A stretch of 64,000 nucleotides of DNA from Candidatus Magasanikiibacteriota bacterium (lineage in GTDB: Bacteria > Patescibacteriota > Patescibacteriia > Magasanikbacterales > GWA2-37-8), in the NCBI GenBank assembly GCA_963802255.1, contig CAWDHY010000001.1, forward strand, positions 555,842 to 619,841. Direction: 5' to 3'. Shown one piece after another: positions 40,243 through 63,611 of this stretch. The notes beneath the pieces were generated by a model. The model saw nothing but the letters and a program-made list of their open reading frames with translations, was not told the origin of the DNA and ran no database searches. The position numbers and the translations under genes were made by a program. Positions within the stretch are counted from its first letter, which is position 1. Every line of letters begins with the position of its first letter.

Positions 40243-41016
40243 TTATTTCTCAATAATATCTACGGATTTAATGGCTACAGGATTTACAGGAGATGAATTT
40301 TCACCTCCGGCACTTTGTTTAACCGGTGCTTCAGCAATTTTATCCACAACATCAAGTCCTTCTGTTACATGGCCAAAAATTACATAATTTTTTGGCAAAG
40401 CGTAATCCTTATGCATAATAAAAAACTGACTGCCATTTGTATCAGGGCCGGAGTTTGCCATGGCAACCGTGCCTCTTAAATAATCACCATCAAATTCTTC
40501 ATCAGCAAAACGATAGCCTGGCCCTCCGGTTCCATTACCGTCCGGATCCCCTCCCTGGATCATAAAATTGCTGATAGTGCGATGAAAAATTGTGTTATCA
40601 TAAAAATTCTTTTTTGCCAAAAAAACAAAATTATTTACGGTAGCAGGCGTCATATCCGCAGTGAAACCAATGGTGATATCACCTGCCGTTGTATGAAGAA
40701 CCGCCGAATATTGTTTTCCTTCTTTGATGACAATTTGTGGCATATTTGAACTATTTGAATTAGCAGGATTTGACGGCGCTGATGCCGCATTTTCCTCCTG
40801 AATATTATTATTTGTATCAGTTGCCGCTTCTCCTGGGGCTGTTTTACCGCTTGAAATATCGTCGAGCCGGCTATTTAGCATTTTTTCTCCATCTTTAAAA
40901 TCTACTACTTCATCTTCTGTAGCAGCGCGTGGAGTTTCATATTTACCCTCAAAAAAAGCGCATCCGCATAGAAAAACAATGCTAAAGATAAGCAATATTG
41001 ACCATTTTTGTCCCAT
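40243..41016 (-). CDS. Cyclophilin-type peptidyl-prolyl cis-trans isomerase, secreted or lipoprotein
   Basis: Signal/lipobox (LCGCAFF) plus the cyclophilin signature FHRTISNFMIQGGDP. A low-complexity linker precedes the domain. Confidence 0.8.
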   Translation of the reverse strand: MGQKWSILLIFSIVFLCGCAFFEGKYETPRAATEDEVVDFKDGEKMLNSRLDDISSGKTAPGEAATDTNNNIQEENAASAPSNPANSNSSNMPQIVIKEGKQYSAVLHTTAGDITIGFTADMTPATVNNFVFLAKKNFYDNTIFHRTISNFMIQGGDPDGNGTGGPGYRFADEEFDGDYLRGTVAMANSGPDTNGSQFFIMHKDYALPKNYVIFGHVTEGLDVVDKIAEAPVKQSAGGENSSPVNPVAIKSVDIIEK

Positions 41017-41148
41017 ATTTCTGTAAGATTAACTAATGTATCAACTATAATCTTATATCAAATATTAAAAAAAGAAAAGACCCGCCCACGCTTTATACAA
41101 GTATACTGGCGTTTGCGGGTCTTTGCCAAAAAACGACTTCGCGCTTTG

Positions 41149-41541
41149 CTACAACAGCCTCCTGATCCCATTGGCATCTCCCTTTTCGCCCGATACGGCG
41201 CAAACTCGAGGCCAGCTATTTCTGACACGGGCCGGTATGGGCAGGTACTTTTTCAGAATTCTGAGCTGGTGCAGGTTCTCGGACACCTCTTTTTCTGACA
41301 GCACTCCGTTCCGGACAAAGAAGAAAACATCCAGCCACAAATCTTTGGCCGGAGCGTCGTTCCCGCTCTCCCTTTCCGGACAATTTCGCCTGCCAGAAGC
41401 AATTTCAATCAGATCGCTAAGCGCCATCTTCACCTCCCTTTCCGAAATTTCCCTGCGGCCCATTGCGCCGCGAATTTCACGCCATTCACCATATGCTGTT
41501 TCTTTGCCAACCTTTACGAGCAACGACATCATCCTCGCCAT
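41149..41541 (-). CDS. Hypothetical protein encoded in a GC-rich insertion
   Basis: 131 aa from the ATG at 41541. It has a strong SD (GGAGGTG-cact-ATG). The protein is charged and helical: MARMMSLLVKVGKETAYGEWREIRG...LSDLIEIASGRRN.... It has only a weak, unconvincing resemblance to four-helix-bundle (23S-IVS) proteins. Local GC is far above the flanks. Confidence 0.4.
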   Translation of the reverse strand: MARMMSLLVKVGKETAYGEWREIRGAMGRREISEREVKMALSDLIEIASGRRNCPERESGNDAPAKDLWLDVFFFVRNGVLSEKEVSENLHQLRILKKYLPIPARVRNSWPRVCAVSGEKGDANGIRRLL

Positions 41542-41676
41542 AGTGCACCTCCATTCTTGGGCGAAGTCTAATAGTTTTTCACGCACCATTACGCGAAAAA
41601 CCAAAAAAAAGAGCTATTAATAATATAGCACTTTTTTAGATTCGAGACAAAAATTTGACAATAACAAATTAAAAAA

Positions 41677-42597
41677 TTATGGATTATTTGCCAACTCATG
41701 AATCAGCCAGGTGTCACCATTCTTTTCTACGGTAACCCACCGCATATTAATACCCTGATTCCATCCATATTGTTCGCCGGCGTCGGTGGATTTTATCTCC
41801 AAATCGGCCTTAAAAACTTGACGCACAGACGTCCACTCTTCCTCATAAACCGGTTCCATATTTTTAATCTTTAGCGCCTGAATAGTATTGAAATTAACAC
41901 CCCAGCCTTGCTTGGTATCAGCATTTGCATCCATCATTTTCAACGCTTCATCAACATTTTTTTCTGAAAGGTAATCAAAAAATTTCCTCACCACTTCTAT
42001 CTGATTAGCTGACTGCGAAACCTTGGGAATCCCCTTTTTAATAATACCCGCGATTTTTACAGCAAAATTAATAATTTCCTCTTCGCTTAAAACCTTATTC
42101 GAACTGCGATTTATGGAAAAAAAATGATTTTCATCTATCACCAGGTATACTTCATTTATTATTCCGTCTTCCTGAATAACCAAAAAATGCTCCATCGGAA
42201 TTTTTGGATCTGTTGTTATGGTCCTATCCAAAAACTCATGCGATTTTTTTTGATTTTCAATCGATAAATTTTCGTAATTTAAACTAAAATACAGTCCGCC
42301 GGGTGACACCTTATTATTCGGCAATTTATAATAATCGTCTGAATACTCAGTAAAATACTGACAATATGCCCCATTATTCTTTAATTCAGTTTTAACAATC
42401 TGTTTGCCTGAAGCTTCCTCAATAATTTCCGCTGAGAATTGTCCGCACATATCCCGAATCTCAATTTCACCTCGATTACCAATGCCATTATCATCTAAGA
42501 CTGCTCCTTTATCATTTCGTCCGCAACCGGCGCCCATAAAAATCAAAACACAAAAAATAAATGTGGTAAAAGCGCTTAACTGTAAAAATTTTTTCAT
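41677..42597 (-). CDS. Hypothetical lipoprotein
   Basis: Preferred start MKKFLQLSAFTTFIFCVLIFMGAGCG (signal peptide plus lipobox); the track start is 42663. No other motif. Confidence 0.45.
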   Translation of the reverse strand: MKKFLQLSAFTTFIFCVLIFMGAGCGRNDKGAVLDDNGIGNRGEIEIRDMCGQFSAEIIEEASGKQIVKTELKNNGAYCQYFTEYSDDYYKLPNNKVSPGGLYFSLNYENLSIENQKKSHEFLDRTITTDPKIPMEHFLVIQEDGIINEVYLVIDENHFFSINRSSNKVLSEEEIINFAVKIAGIIKKGIPKVSQSANQIEVVRKFFDYLSEKNVDEALKMMDANADTKQGWGVNFNTIQALKIKNMEPVYEEEWTSVRQVFKADLEIKSTDAGEQYGWNQGINMRWVTVEKNGDTWLIHELANNP

Positions 42598-42666
42598 AAA
42601 ATATGAAAATAATAAATATGCTGTAATAATTAAAAGTATCCCCAACTTTATCACTTGCCTCAATCG

Positions 42667-42751
42667 CGGAAGGAGAGGGATTCGAACCCTCGAAACCTTT
42701 CGGTTTACACGCTTTCCAAGCGTGCGCCATCGACCACTAGGCGACCCTTCC
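42667..42751 (-). tRNA. tRNA-Ser (anticodon GGA)
   Basis: Reverse complement GGAAGGGTCGCCTAGTGGTCGATGGCGCACGCTTGGAAAGCGTGTAAACCGAAAGGTTTCGAGGGTTCGAATCCCTCTCCTTCCG. It has a 7-bp acceptor stem, anticodon loop TTGGAAA, a long variable arm and a T-loop GGTTCGAATCC. Confidence 0.85.
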
Positions 42752-52659: not shown

Positions 52660-54444
52660 CTACCAGCTGCCTCCACCGCCGCCGCCAAATCCACCGCCCG
52701 ATCCGCCTCCTGAAAAACCGCTTCCGCCGGAAGAAGCGGATGATGATACTGTGGCGCCAAGTGTTGATGCCGCGGCAGTATCAAAACTGGCCAAACTGCT
52801 GGTAAGAAAAAGCGCATTAAACATGCCAGCATGATTCGGGTCTTCATACCACTTCGGCTGAATATTATAAATCCCCTCAAACTGCTTCGCCCATTCTTTT
52901 TCAACTTTCATCACCATGGCATAGGGCAATAATTTCTCAAATCTTTCCGGATTCTTCTCCGGCGCGTTGTGAAATTCAATCCGGGCTTTTTCCGCCACTG
53001 TCATATACAATTTTAATCCGAGAATTTTTTCCTTTGTTTCCGCTCCTTTTTTAGTTAATACCGGCATAATAAAACCGAAAACAATAATAATTATCGCTGA
53101 AAGTGTCAGGGCGAATATACCTAAAAGCCCGAATATCACTCCGATAAAAAATGCCATGAAAAAAACAAAACACCCGCCCGCCAGATATTTCATTTTCATC
53201 ATCCTTGGATTTTTTGCGAAATAACCGTCTGTTGTCAGGTCCTTATACAAATTACCGACGACTTTTTGCATGGTTGATGCAAACTCATATTTAAGTGCGG
53301 ACAATTTAATAACATCTCCTTTTTCAAACAAATTATTCATTATTTCCTTGTCAAAACTTTTTGTCAGATCGTCGGCCGGTTTGAGTTTGGTAAAAATGTA
53401 ATCGCTGTTTTTTAATATCTTTCCGGTTTCTTCCCGTCGAATTTTTAAATAGCCGTTTACAGCCAGTTGAATAATTTGAGCCGAAACATCATGACGGTCG
53501 GCGCGGTTATCATAAAGAGTGCCAACCTCGGCCGGAGCTAAATTATCGGGCGCTTCGTATTCGGGAATAATTGTTCCTCTTCCTTTAGCGTTTTTACCGA
53601 GCTTTTTCCAGCGCCTGTAAAGCCAAATAAAAATAAGTACCGGTAAGAAAATAATGCCATTATCACGAACAATTTCCAGAATAGTCTGAGAAAGAGGCGG
53701 TTTCTGAATAGTCCCGGCCGGCACTCCTATAACCACCGTTAAACCCTCAGCCGGTTTCAAATCAACGGCTTTAAATACTACTACGGAAATCGGATCGTTC
53801 TCATTAAGATCACCTGAGTCATTCAATATTCCGGCAGACATTTCACAAACCTTCGTGCTTCCATACGCTCCGTAATAGCATGTTCGTGTGACATCGCTAT
53901 CCGGCAAATCATTCTCAAAACGGACAATGGTTTCCGCTTCATCAATCGGCACCTGCCAGCCGTTGCCTGTGGCATTCCAATACAATTCATCATGATCATC
54001 AAAATAATTTATCGCTCGTCTGACCGTGTATCGTATGCGGTATGTGTGTTGGCCGGTAATAAGTTTATCCGCATCCCCGATTTTAATTTGCAAATTACTG
54101 CCGGAATATAAAGTGGTAAAAGTGTATGGGTTATTATTTTCGTCAACAACCGATACATCAGACACGCGCAATTTGTAATTTCCGCCCCGTGCTTTGTATC
54201 CGATAATAATATCGCGATATATTCCGTGGCGTTCCGCTTCGCCAAAATTATAAATTATACTTTCCTCAACATTAATACTGGCGTCGCTATGAAGAGAAAT
54301 ATCAGAAATAAATTTATCAATTTTCTCCTGAGCCATAACCGGCCCGGCGAAGGATAAAAAAACTACCACCAACAAACTTACACAAATTTTCTTAAACATA
54401 AATACATTGTTAAAATATGCATATATTGTATCACTTATGCTCAA
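52660..54444 (-). CDS. DUF2207-family membrane protein with a C-terminal Gly/Ser-rich tail
   Basis: Signal/TM, a large extracellular domain, TM segments, and a C-terminal ...[24 protein letters not shown]. The [30 protein letters not shown] region is typical of DUF2207. Confidence 0.55.
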
Positions 54445-54475
54445 AAAATAAAAAAATCCCGCAGAAATTGCGGGA
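54441..54475 (-). terminator. Intrinsic terminator of the zinc-ribbon gene (GC-rich cassette, unit 2)
   Basis: On the minus strand: CCCGCA-ATTTC-TGCGGG followed by TTTTTTTATTTTTT. Confidence 0.65.
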
Positions 54476-54497
54476 TGGCGGGAAAGAACAGGGTTTT

Positions 54498-54773
54498 CTA
54501 GGAGCAGTTGGGGCAGGGCAGGTCGCGGACGCTTCTGCGGTCATCGGCCAGACCGCACTCCGGGCACATCTCCTCGACGATGAGCTCGCCGAAAATGGTG
54601 CACTCCTCCGCTTCCAGGAATACGGCCAGAGATTCGTCCCTGAAGACGAACCGGGCGTAGCCGCGCTTGGCATCTTCGGCATTTTTCCCCAGCTGAAGCC
54701 CGCGAAGGACCTTGCCGGAACGGATATCCGTCATACGGAAGTGCCTCCGATGCTTGTGGGTCTTGCTAGCCAT
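54498..54773 (-). CDS. Hypothetical basic zinc-ribbon protein (GC-rich cassette)
   Basis: 91 aa from the ATG at 54773, with SD AAGGAG-aaatg-ATG. [26 protein letters not shown]...CPECG...CPNCS has a C-terminal C4 zinc ribbon. Local GC is far above the genome average. Confidence 0.5.
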
Positions 54774-54826
54774 CATTTCTCCTTTTTGAGAGCAATAACT
54801 GCCCAAAATTGCACGATTCTGGCCGT

Positions 54827-54855
54827 ATTATAGCACAAAATACGACTTTTGTCAA
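54827..54855 (-). promoter_or_regulatory. Perfect-consensus sigma70 promoter driving the zinc-ribbon gene
   Basis: On the minus strand: TTGACA, a 17-nt spacer, then TATAAT, about 50 nt upstream of the SD/ATG. Confidence 0.6.
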
Positions 54856-54902
54856 CCCCTCACGGACTTTCAATAAATTGCCTCTAACCCAGACAGATAT
54901 TC

Positions 54903-54934
54903 ATAAAAAAACCGGCAGAAAGGGATTCTGCCGG
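54903..54934 (-). terminator. Intrinsic terminator between the two cassette genes
   Basis: On the minus strand: CCGGCAGAA-tccct-TTCTGCCGG followed by TTTTTTTAT. Confidence 0.65.
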
Positions 54935-54964
54935 CCGGAATACTCCGTCAAAAAGGAACGACTG

Positions 54965-55570
54965 TCAGGTGGAGGCCAATCCTTCGGCCTTATTGCAGAC
55001 CGAACAAATGAATTGGCGGGCGGCCGTACTTTTCGGACGGCCGAAGAGCCATTCGGCGAAAATCGCCGAGAGGATGGTACTGCTGTCAGCCGGATCGAAA
55101 AGCCGGTCGGCGTTCAGCGTTTCATCGGTTTCTTCTGCCAGAAAGTCGGAAGAGGTGTCCGGCGGGTAAACGAGGAATGTCTTGTCCTGACGAAAGACCT
55201 CGACGGACAGAATCTGTTTTGAACCGATGAGACAAAACAGTGAAACCACATTGTCACTGAACATACCGGAAAGAGCCCGCAGGACTTCGGAATGAGGCTG
55301 AAGCTGGTCCAACCAGAACGACAGTTCGTTGCGGTCGATAGGCGTTGCGCACCGGCTGAGCAAATCCGTCCAATCGGCGTTCTGAACTTCATCGGTGAGA
55401 TCGGACCCGTAGATATTCATGAACTCGCGCATGTCCGGCTCGTCGGTGGTGGCGTTTGCCCGGCATTGGCGGTTTAGCCAGGAGAGCCTCCACTCCTTTG
55501 CTTCCGGGTGATTCCGCCTGTATGCGGATGTGCCGGCAAGCAGTTCCTTTCCCGAAATGTCGGTTATCAT
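54965..55570 (-). CDS. Hypothetical acidic protein (GC-rich cassette)
   Basis: 201 aa with SD AAGGAGGGG-ctttaa-ATG. Asp/Glu-rich with several Trp residues and no recognised catalytic motif. A weak resemblance to SUKH/Smi1-type immunity proteins is speculative. Confidence 0.5.
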   Translation of the reverse strand: MITDISGKELLAGTSAYRRNHPEAKEWRLSWLNRQCRANATTDEPDMREFMNIYGSDLTDEVQNADWTDLLSRCATPIDRNELSFWLDQLQPHSEVLRALSGMFSDNVVSLFCLIGSKQILSVEVFRQDKTFLVYPPDTSSDFLAEETDETLNADRLFDPADSSTILSAIFAEWLFGRPKSTAARQFICSVCNKAEGLAST

Positions 55571-55592
55571 TTAAAGCCCCTCCTTTTTTGTT

Positions 55593-55623
55593 TTCAACCA
55601 ATATGAAATTATCACCGGTTGAA
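55593..55623 (-). promoter_or_regulatory. Promoter with palindromic operator upstream of the acidic-protein gene
   Basis: On the minus strand: TTGACT, 15-17 nt, then GATAAT. A 7-bp inverted repeat TTCAACC-N17-GGTTGAA overlaps the spacer and -10. Confidence 0.5.
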
Positions 55624-55650
55624 GAAAAAGTCAAATATATTATAAACTAA

Positions 55651-55680
55651 AAAACTCCGGACCAAAATCCGAAGTTTTCC
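55651..55680 (-). terminator. Intrinsic terminator after the upstream membrane-protein gene (right cassette boundary)
   Basis: On the minus strand: AAAACTTCGGA-tttTgg-TCCGGAGTTTT followed by TTAGTTT. Confidence 0.55.
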
Positions 55681-55690
55681 CAAAATAATA

Positions 55691-56296
55691 TTATTTAATC
55701 GTTACTGTCACTTCTTTATCCGGCGCCATATAGCTGACCAATCGCTTTATCTCCTCTTTCGCCTTATTATTTGCCGCTTCCATCATCTCGGTGGAGGTCG
55801 CGGCACTCTCCGCTTGCCTTATTATCTCAGCCATGGCTTGGTTATAACCGTCATCATTTTCCAAAATACGTTTTAATATCCCCTGCTTATTTTCTACACT
55901 TATGTCGCCTACCAATCGGGAATTAAATATTTCCGCCCCCGGAACAGCTACCGTAATATCATTGCCGGTCATTTGAATATCATCGGCTTTCATTTCTTCC
56001 AAATCAACGCCGAGATTCACTTCCACCACAGCAGAAGCTTTTATTTCCTGGCCCCAAAATAATTTTTTCCAGATGCTGGCGTCATTGTCTTTTATCGTCA
56101 CAGCAACAGTGGACACGCTGGTTTCGGTTACCAAGAAACCGCGCTCGCGCAAGGCCGATAATATCGTCTGCCCGGAAACAACGCGCTCAGGCTTTGATTC
56201 TTTTGTTAGAAGCCAGCCGATAAAAACGCCAAACGCTAAAATTACAGCAACCAAAAATATCGCTCTAATCAATGCTTTCATATTCATTATTCGCAA
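55691..56296 (-). CDS. Hypothetical membrane-anchored protein (possibly DUF4230-like)
   Basis: 201 aa with an N-terminal TM helix and a soluble domain. No catalytic motif. Confidence 0.4.
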   Translation of the reverse strand: MRIMNMKALIRAIFLVAVILAFGVFIGWLLTKESKPERVVSGQTILSALRERGFLVTETSVSTVAVTIKDNDASIWKKLFWGQEIKASAVVEVNLGVDLEEMKADDIQMTGNDITVAVPGAEIFNSRLVGDISVENKQGILKRILENDDGYNQAMAEIIRQAESAATSTEMMEAANNKAKEEIKRLVSYMAPDKEVTVTIK

Positions 56297-63215: not shown

Positions 63216-63611
63216 TTATTCAATGTTACGTCTTAACGATTTCACCCGCGAACGCCGTATTTTAGATTCCAATCGGCGCAATTTGGACGCGCGGGTCGGC
63301 CTGGTCGGACGGCGTTTTTTTGGCACATGAAGAGCCCGGGCAACAAGCGCTTCCAGCCGGTCAACGGCCAGCGCCCGGTTTTGTGATTGTGTTCGCTCTT
63401 CTTCAGACACAACCACCACTTCATCTTTAGAATTTATCCGACTGGCCAGCTTCGCCCGCACTCTCGCTTTTTCTTCAAAAGATAAAACACGCGAACGCCC
63501 CAACGGCCAATGCACAGTCGCTTTGGTCGATGTCTTATTCACATTCTGCCCGCCTGCGCCGGATGAGCGGGAAAAAGTGATGCGGAGTTCATTGCCAGGT
63601 ATGTATATCAC
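63216..63611 (-). CDS. arfB: Alternative ribosome-rescue factor ArfB (peptidyl-tRNA hydrolase domain, GGQ)
   Basis: 131 aa. SRSSGAGGQNVNKTSTKA (GGQ motif) and a basic C-terminal tail. Confidence 0.8.
   Translation of the reverse strand: MIYIPGNELRITFSRSSGAGGQNVNKTSTKATVHWPLGRSRVLSFEEKARVRAKLASRINSKDEVVVVSEEERTQSQNRALAVDRLEALVARALHVPKKRRPTRPTRASKLRRLESKIRRSRVKSLRRNIE

Follow-up and report, generated by a model that had tools for sequence, protein, structure and literature searches.

A GC-rich orphan gene with a conserved leader hairpin at a constant position in genomes of Candidatus Magasanikbacteria and relatives

Introduction

The rpsO gene of Escherichia coli, which encodes ribosomal protein uS15, is autoregulated and carries a pseudoknot in its leader. 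Structural RNA genes classically appear as peaks of GC in AT-rich DNA with several reading frames open, and this signature has been used for finding non-coding RNAs (ncRNAs) in AT-rich hyperthermophiles. Bacterial orphan genes are typically AT-rich. The present work deals with ORF130, the gene of a 130-residue orphan protein (P0001) located on the minus strand of a GC-rich patch in DNA from a Candidatus Magasanikiibacteriota bacterium (GenBank assembly GCA_963802255.1, contig CAWDHY010000001.1, positions 555,842 to 619,841). This stretch of 64,000 nucleotides is called the window below, and coordinates are counted from its first letter. With its high GC content ORF130 is the opposite of the usual orphan-gene pattern. 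The original prediction, made from the letters of the window, had described the patch as a GC-rich insertion. The comparisons presented here indicate that it is probably an old, vertically inherited gene with a structured leader, restricted to one narrow clade of ultra-small Patescibacteria (Candidatus Magasanikbacteria and relatives).

Like the autoregulated rpsO genes, ORF130 combines a promoter-like site, a structured leader, a Shine-Dalgarno sequence (SD), a small basic helical protein and a strong terminator. In both cases a loop of the leader is able to pair near the start site, and in ORF130 much of the protein is less conserved than the leader. The differences are that the ORF130 protein resembles neither uS15 nor any other ribosomal protein in sequence or fold, that its binding to the leader is a conjecture, and that the possible pseudoknot of the leader is without covariation support. 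With RNA thermometers (ROSE, fourU) the locus shares a conserved structure in the 5' untranslated region (UTR), a start region that can be paired and a position at the head of a chaperone-rich cluster. Unlike these thermometers, the leader hairpin of ORF130 (designated P1) excludes the SD, the leader carries no ROSE or fourU motif, and temperature dependence is conjectural. A literature search on Magasanikbacteria and GC-rich bacterial orphans gave nothing directly relevant as a precedent. New here are a protein family lacking annotation, whose fold is predicted with confidence but has no match, and a leader hairpin outside Rfam, both confined to a little-studied uncultured clade of the candidate phyla radiation (CPR).

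Results and Discussion

Coding capacity and base composition

An exhaustive HMMER search over 1.84 billion representative proteins gave 9 members of the ORF130 family, and a profile search of 5.8 billion clusters gave 12 matches. The only name given to the members is "hypothetical protein", and they come from metagenome-assembled genomes labelled Magasanikbacteria or "Patescibacteria group". Eleven distinct loci were compared at the DNA level: the window and L001, L004, L006, L007, L008, L009, L010, L081, L082 and L083.

The protein of locus L001 from Candidatus Magasanikbacteria (P0002) is 64% identical to P0001 without indels, and the DNA substitutions between these two loci fall on codon positions 1, 2 and 3 in the numbers 30, 27 and 58. 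The dN/dS ratio is 0.26–0.31 (Nei-Gojobori method, three close pairs), and the reading frame is open in all 16 family members at a length of 118–139 codons. ORF130 is a protein gene under purifying selection. Several open reading frames (ORFs) traverse the patch, as had been noted originally for GC-rich DNA, the longest being a 165-residue ORF of the plus strand (41123-41620). It shares its third codon positions with the minus-strand frame, so periodicity alone cannot pick the strand. In L001 the antisense frame is broken, whereas the 130-residue frame, the SD and the terminator are intact, and the antisense ORF was rejected on both grounds. The choice of the minus-strand gene with its SD (GGAGGTG in DNA) was therefore correct, and the length of 131 residues assigned to the product becomes 130, the former figure being the number of codons with the stop included.

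The region 41130-41560 has a GC content of 52.4% (49.1% for 41075-41640) against a window mean of 40.3%. This excess of 12 points (z = 3.3) places it in the top 0.8% among 430-bp windows, in agreement with the markedly higher GC claimed for the patch. The coding sequence (CDS) of ORF130 has 52.7% GC and a GC fraction at third codon positions (GC3) of 0.60, compared to a background of 0.40 ± 0.07 (62 ORFs of the window) and to 0.27–0.46 in the next-door genes of the window and L001. Its synonymous codon usage lies 4.7 standard deviations away from 21 background genes, so that GC and codon statistics both deviate. The high arginine content of the protein (12% vs 4%) accounts for a part of the excess at the first and second codon positions and not for GC3.

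High GC is found in 11/11 loci (0.52–0.62 for the gene vs 0.40–0.48 for the remainder of the locus), with GC3 of 0.57–0.73. The proportion of synonymous differences between distant members reaches 0.64–0.79, i.e. synonymous sites are saturated, and third-position divergence between the window and L001 is 0.45 in ORF130 and 0.45–0.50 in the neighbouring genes. Since GC3 is high in every lineage in spite of this saturation, the composition is an equilibrium that is maintained and not a scar of transfer; being equally strong in all lineages, the deviation is no marker of a recent event. Either selection or a local bias keeps GC3 high. The compositional anomaly had arisen before any of the known carriers diverged, and it must be kept up actively. 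RNA structure within the CDS was tried as its cause. Folding of the native CDS compared with codon-preserving shuffles gives z from -3.3 to +0.35 with a mean of about -1 over the 11 loci: 4 of them are more stable than the shuffles (z -1.8 to -3.3), and 7 are near zero. This candidate was rejected because of the inconsistency. If RNA stability is the target, bulk composition counts rather than specific structure.

Genomic position and inheritance

ORF130 stands immediately before the cyclophilin gene in all 11 loci. In all sufficiently long loci the same genes follow each other on one strand: ORF130, its own terminator, cyclophilin, CDP-alcohol phosphatidyltransferase, YidC, SPFH and HrcA-GrpE-DnaK. 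The order from ORF130 and its terminator through cyclophilin and the phosphatidyltransferase to YidC is identical in L001, L004, L006, L007, L008, L081 and L082 and is partially covered in L009 and L010. The upstream neighbour is variable: a lipoprotein gene in the window, tRNA-Ser in L001, and Zip in L004, L006 and L007; L081 has a zinc-finger protein there, and L082 a hydrolase. The position of tRNA-Ser(GGA) is directly after lgt in the window, L001, L004 and L006, and the number of genes between this tRNA gene and ORF130 is 0, 1, 1 or 6 depending on the lineage. The 328-residue lipoprotein gene of the window is not found at the syntenic spot in L001, and other lineages have 1–6 different genes there. 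What really varies in this region is thus the 3' flank of tRNA-Ser(GGA), and ORF130 is part of the constant block that lies beyond.

Pairwise identities of ORF130 proteins and of the adjacent cyclophilins are correlated (Mantel r = 0.53, p = 0.004). The discordant pair is L006/L007, with identities of 73% for ORF130 and 98% for cyclophilin. Alignment of the two loci (L006 7046-12400 with L007 1-5278) shows DNA identity of ~0.80–0.85 over Zip and ORF130, then 0.96–1.00 from just past the ORF130 stop through the cyclophilin, phosphatidyltransferase and YidC genes, and a second diverged block (0.85–0.91) within the gene of a 230-residue protein. The discordance is thus due to a recombination mosaic with a breakpoint at the ORF130 stop codon, and the Zip gene upstream is part of the mosaic. 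For this pair a hotspot of divergence confined to ORF130 was considered and rejected, since the mosaic extends over the upstream gene. The mosaic itself is evidence of homologous recombination among related CPR populations.

The DNA pattern of the leader was scanned in 185,579 species genomes (GTDB) and in JGI metagenomes. Among the 66 loci found, 5 carry ORF130, and the remainder are chance matches in high-GC genomes. The five come from two genomes and a short contig of a metagenome (L017 is L001, L041 and L055 are both L004, and L075 has the protein of L006), so no new family member was obtained. The search of metagenomes and phages, which had been suggested together with the original prediction, leaves the family confined to Patescibacteria loci, with no phage copy.

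Leader hairpin and the CGCC element

Conservation over the ~70 nt preceding the ATG exceeds that of much of the protein. This segment contains, between promoter-like site and SD on the sense strand, the hairpin P1 (Table 1; the match of its covariance model spans 41606..41569). It is a helix of 13 pairs with 90% of the alignment cells paired and with compensatory double changes at 6 pairs (RNAalifold and explicit pair count). The covariation score of 0.40 is reached by 0/500 shuffles, and slid registers give 0.09–0.23. The loop (U/C)AAUGGUG is nearly invariant. Several of the changes are U-A to U-G, which points to pairing in the sense RNA and argues against a symmetric DNA operator. Each locus has exactly one copy according to the covariance model. 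A regulon of such hairpins was considered and rejected, as no further P1-like copy was found in the 148 kb scanned with the model. P1 has no match in Rfam. Comparison of the loci shows P1 to be a covariation-supported RNA hairpin of the 5' UTR, presumably acting in cis.

Between P1 and the SD lies the element UUCGCC(C/A). Its CGCC core is invariant in 11/11 loci and is usually followed by A. The resulting CGCCA is complementary both to A-UGGCG-A, formed by the start codon and codon 2, and to UGGUG of the P1 loop. Codon 2 of ORF130 is GCG in 11/11 loci, compared to 28% GCG among background alanine codons. Each of the two pairings of CGCCA is possible in ~89–90% of cells vs 23–58% in slid registers, and the covariation equals that of shuffles because the columns are invariant. 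In the minimum free energy (MFE) fold, CGCCA is paired with UGGCG for most homologs. A toggle of CGCCA between the start codon and the P1 loop is proposed solely as a hypothesis.

The protein and its predicted fold

Neither P0001 nor any of the 9 family members matches Pfam at E <= 1. PHROGs, NCBIfam and PADLOC gave nothing meaningful for P0001, and the absence of a match to PADLOC models at E <= 0.1 means that no component of a defence system was recognized. The sole flicker in the protein-family searches was CymR (E = 0.049, 13.7 bits vs a cutoff of 195). In the Protein Data Bank (PDB) the best hits by single sequence and by profile (E of 1.2 and 0.12, respectively) are unrelated eukaryotic proteins. 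Consequently no clear match to a housekeeping protein, which would have spoken against the original prediction, is seen in Pfam, NCBIfam or PDB.

AlphaFold2 supplied with the family alignment predicts an all-alpha protein with a mean predicted local distance difference test (pLDDT) score of 77. It exceeds 90 in the core (approximately residues 20-110), while the termini are disordered. The predicted helices comprise residues 16-28, 34-49, 65-77, 83-96 and 104-107. The helix-loop-helix unit W..G.L...EV...L..L is internally duplicated (hhalign of the halves, E = 7e-5), and the duplication is followed by the motif LPxPxRVR with P101, P103, R105 and R107 invariant in an alignment of 16 proteins. 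Foldseek search of the model against PDB gave a best E of 2.2 with TM-scores of 0.19–0.26. The isoelectric point (pI) is 9.3–10.7 in 9/11 members. The structure prediction and sensitive profile search called for earlier thus show a confident core and no known relative. The protein is real, fast-evolving, mostly basic and, as modelled, all-alpha, and it is without detectable relatives in sequence or fold.

Alternative explanations

The composition of the patch could be read in two other ways. A structured ncRNA gene with an incidental ORF (or, in a milder form, a dual-function RNA) would explain the sharp GC peak among AT-rich genes, the spurious ORFs, the stable hairpins at both ends, which are better conserved than the protein, and the extra stability of 4 of the 11 CDSs. 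ORF130 differs from such RNA genes in its codon-periodic substitutions, a dN/dS well below 1, a frame kept open throughout the lineages and conserved residues that build a confidently predicted protein fold; the other 7 CDSs have no extra structure. At gathering score tRNA-Ser is the sole Rfam match in the whole window, and even at E <= 10 nothing relevant appears over 40950-41750, the best hit having 19.7 bits vs a gathering score of 43. An RNA gene is therefore very unlikely. Still less probable is the recent insertion that had been proposed originally, an islet beside tRNA-Ser that possibly shared a donor with the GC-rich patch at 54.5 kb. As in genomic islets beside tRNA genes, the local composition and the codons of ORF130 are atypical, tRNA-Ser is 1.1 kb away, and the segment between them does vary among lineages. 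But ORF130 itself is constant and syntenic down to ~25–30% protein identity and co-diverges with cyclophilin, its GC3 is high despite saturated synonymous sites, and the genes at 54.5 kb are not homologous to it and are themselves syntenic in a relative. No direct repeats bracketing the patch, no integrase, no PHROG or PADLOC match and no phage copy were found (plasmid collections were not searched); the 4 matches of a first, looser leader pattern to viral contigs are due to chance, the contigs having 50–68% GC and no ORF130. A recent insertion is already contradicted by these data, and a tempting misreading is corrected: high GC beside a tRNA gene need not signify an island.

Two further readings concern the product and the leader of ORF130. 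The faint similarity of the protein to four-helix-bundle proteins of the 23S rRNA intervening sequence (IVS) and Avd type (PF05635), an impression gained at first reading, lies in its size of ~130 residues, its helicity and its basic charge, and the similarity proved to be as weak as it was then judged. PF05635 is hit by none of the 9 members, neither the sequence nor the model finds a counterpart in PDB, the helices of 13–16 residues form a duplicated helix-loop-helix and not a long antiparallel bundle, and the neighbourhood contains no rRNA IVS or retroelement. A divergent member of that family is hardly credible. The inverted repeat of the leader could instead act in the DNA, as the operator of a dimeric transcription factor that might be the ORF130 product itself. 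Its location between the -10 box and the SD is typical for a repressor, it has an 8-nt spacer, and symmetric changes of half-sites would also look compensatory. However, the U-A to U-G variants pair in the sense RNA only and would be A-C mismatches under operator symmetry, and the spacer lacks symmetry and hardly varies. The P1 model scores 16.7–23.3 bits on the opposite strand, in four loci only, compared to 31.5–48.9 bits on the sense strand. The operator is thus quite unlikely, although less so than the readings discussed before it.

Proposed function and regulation

The reading preferred here is that of an old resident gene with an RNA leader, and our best guess, drawn from sequence features, is that ORF130 encodes a small basic nucleic-acid-binding regulator, the expression of which would be controlled through the leader. 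The parts of this guess are of unequal strength. Binding of nucleic acid is a tentative suggestion. It is somewhat more doubtful that synthesis of the protein is set post-transcriptionally through P1 and CGCCA, whether by the protein itself or by temperature. In such a scheme pairing of CGCCA with the start region AUGGCGA would lower initiation, capture of CGCCA by UGGUG of the P1 loop would free the start region, and either the encoded protein (autoregulation) or temperature would set the toggle. A further possibility, expected at about the same modest level as nucleic-acid binding, is that message stability or translation rate benefits from the GC-rich mRNA body with its rare codons.

Several points weigh against this picture. 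Two members of the family have a pI of ~6.5, and the case for nucleic-acid binding consists of basic charge, an Arg-rich conserved motif and a conserved leader. Neither pairing of CGCCA, with the start or with the loop, shows covariation. In L008 the loop reads UUCUG, and a match to it (CAGAA) exists only in a shifted register, 3 nt further on. The constant GCG at codon 2 may just promote initiation. The codon-preserving shuffles give no consistent support for selection on mRNA structure. Finally, the gene may have entered the ancestor of the clade by an ancient transfer.

The constant place of ORF130 at the head of a cluster for protein folding and membrane insertion hints at a role there. 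Since a terminator and a separate promoter-like sequence precede the cyclophilin gene, the link to the cluster is positional only. In a more general picture, this CPR clade has retained a group of small monocistronic genes that are restricted to the lineage, namely ORF130 and at least two genes at 54.5 kb. Their GC-rich rare-codon composition would be a selected regulatory property (mRNA stability or translation limited by rare tRNAs), and ORF130 would in addition possess the CGCCA/P1 leader switch tying it to its folding and insertion cluster. As a whole this picture is unlikely to be correct. If a leader switch or a GC-rich regulatory device is real, it would give a small tractable handle on regulation in organisms not yet grown alone; at present ORF130 is a well-delimited orphan gene.

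Transcription unit and neighbouring genes

The features of the ORF130 unit are listed in Table 1. ORF130 is a self-contained monocistronic unit consisting of a promoter-like site, a structured leader, a strong SD, the ORF and a strong terminator. The promoter-like site would imply a 5' UTR of roughly 70–75 nt, and a block G.TC.TT just 3' of it is conserved in all loci. GGAGG of the SD is invariant in 11/11 loci.

Table 1. Positions of the elements of the ORF130 transcription unit in the window.
Feature	Coordinates	Strand	Basis or details
Promoter-like site: -35 TTGTCT, 17-nt spacer, TG-extended -10 TATATT	41622..41650	-	consensus match only
Leader hairpin P1	41575..41600	-	5' arm UUUUUCGCG 41600..41592, loop UAAUGGUG 41591..41584, 3' arm CGUGAAAAA 41583..41575
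Leader element UUCGCC(C/A)	41559..41565	-	leader alignment
Shine-Dalgarno sequence GGAGGUG	41552..41546	-	4 nt before ATG; read from sequence
Coding sequence of the 130-residue protein P0001	41149..41541 including stop (ATG 41541)	-	intact frame, codon periodicity, dN/dS, AlphaFold2
Small 3'-UTR hairpin, immediately 3' of the stop	41127..41148	-	fold
Intrinsic terminator: two-tier hairpin 41124..41076 and UCUUUUUUU 41075..41067	41067..41124	-	fold

The terminator has both hallmarks of the intrinsic type, a stable GC-rich stem-loop and a U-tract on the sense strand. Its outer stem is formed by AAAGACCCGC/GCGGGUCUUU, and the 89-nt stretch 41150..41062 has an MFE of -29.3 kcal/mol (z = -3.1). A simple terminator scan missed the hairpin because its loop is long. 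The long stem-loop with a T-tract described originally is thus present, with the coordinates given for it (41082-41129) shifted by ~5 nt. The 3' arm with the tail ...GGGUCUUUUCUU is kept in all loci except L008, which carries GGGCUUUUCUU.

Some additional observations were made on the 3' UTRs and on the CDS. The small 3'-UTR hairpin holds GCGAAGU(U), complementary over 7–8 bp to (A)ACUUCGC of the 5' UTR beside the SD (41559-41566). The complementarity is found in the three closest relatives (the window, L001 and L009) and not in the L004/L006 clade, and it could be a long-range contact or mere chance. In L004 (8415-8545), L006 (8418-8548), L007 (1360-1490) and L083 (2774-2900) the 3' UTR of ~125 nt is highly conserved. 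It contains two inner hairpins within a stem GGCCUCG/CGGGGUC and ends in the GGGUCUUUUCUU tail. This branched terminator is far more elaborate than termination requires. Within the CDS (41421-41444, minus strand) the codons of EREVKMA read GAAAGGGAGGUGAAGAUGGCG, that is an SD-like GGAGGUG followed by AUGGCG, and resemble the true start GGAGGUGCACUAUGGCG. The internal AUG is not conserved in L001, so the resemblance is probably incidental.

The neighbouring genes are positioned as had been described. On one side lies the gene of a lipoprotein-type cyclophilin (40243-41016, Pfam E = 5e-41), preceded by its separate promoter-like sequence. On the other side the AT-rich (36% GC) gene of the putative 328-residue lipoprotein (41677-42663, minus strand) stands between ORF130 and tRNA-Ser(GGA) (42666-42751).

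Other GC-rich genes of the window

The patch at 54.5 kb (54380-55720, minus strand) consists of two GC-rich small genes, each with its own SD and terminator. The first (54965-55570, minus strand) encodes a protein of 201 residues with homologs at 51–55% identity, and the second (54498-54806, minus strand) a protein of ~100 residues with a C-terminal zinc-ribbon-like motif CPxCG...CPNC. Pfam gives no significant match for either of them (zf_Rg at E = 0.011 does not reach its cutoff), and PADLOC gives no match. In a Magasanikbacteria relative (L084 5001-6040) both genes are syntenic between DUF4230 and DUF2207 and have GC3 of 0.66 and 0.73. Both GC-rich patches of the window depart from the background codon usage, and ORF130 and the 54.5-kb genes prefer different Arg codons. 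Homology of ORF130 with the 54.5-kb proteins was rejected (hhalign probability 0.1%). Of the shared origin suggested for the two patches, a common character is what remains: these genes are old and syntenic, restricted to the lineage and rich in GC3. A high GC content may be common to lineage-restricted small genes in this clade.

Another GC-rich gene of the window (63216-63611, minus strand; 52% GC) encodes a 131-residue RF-1-domain protein (Pfam E = 3e-20) similar to ArfB/peptidyl-tRNA hydrolase. With a GC3 of only 0.50, this gene owes its GC excess largely to amino-acid composition, which makes it a contrast case to ORF130.

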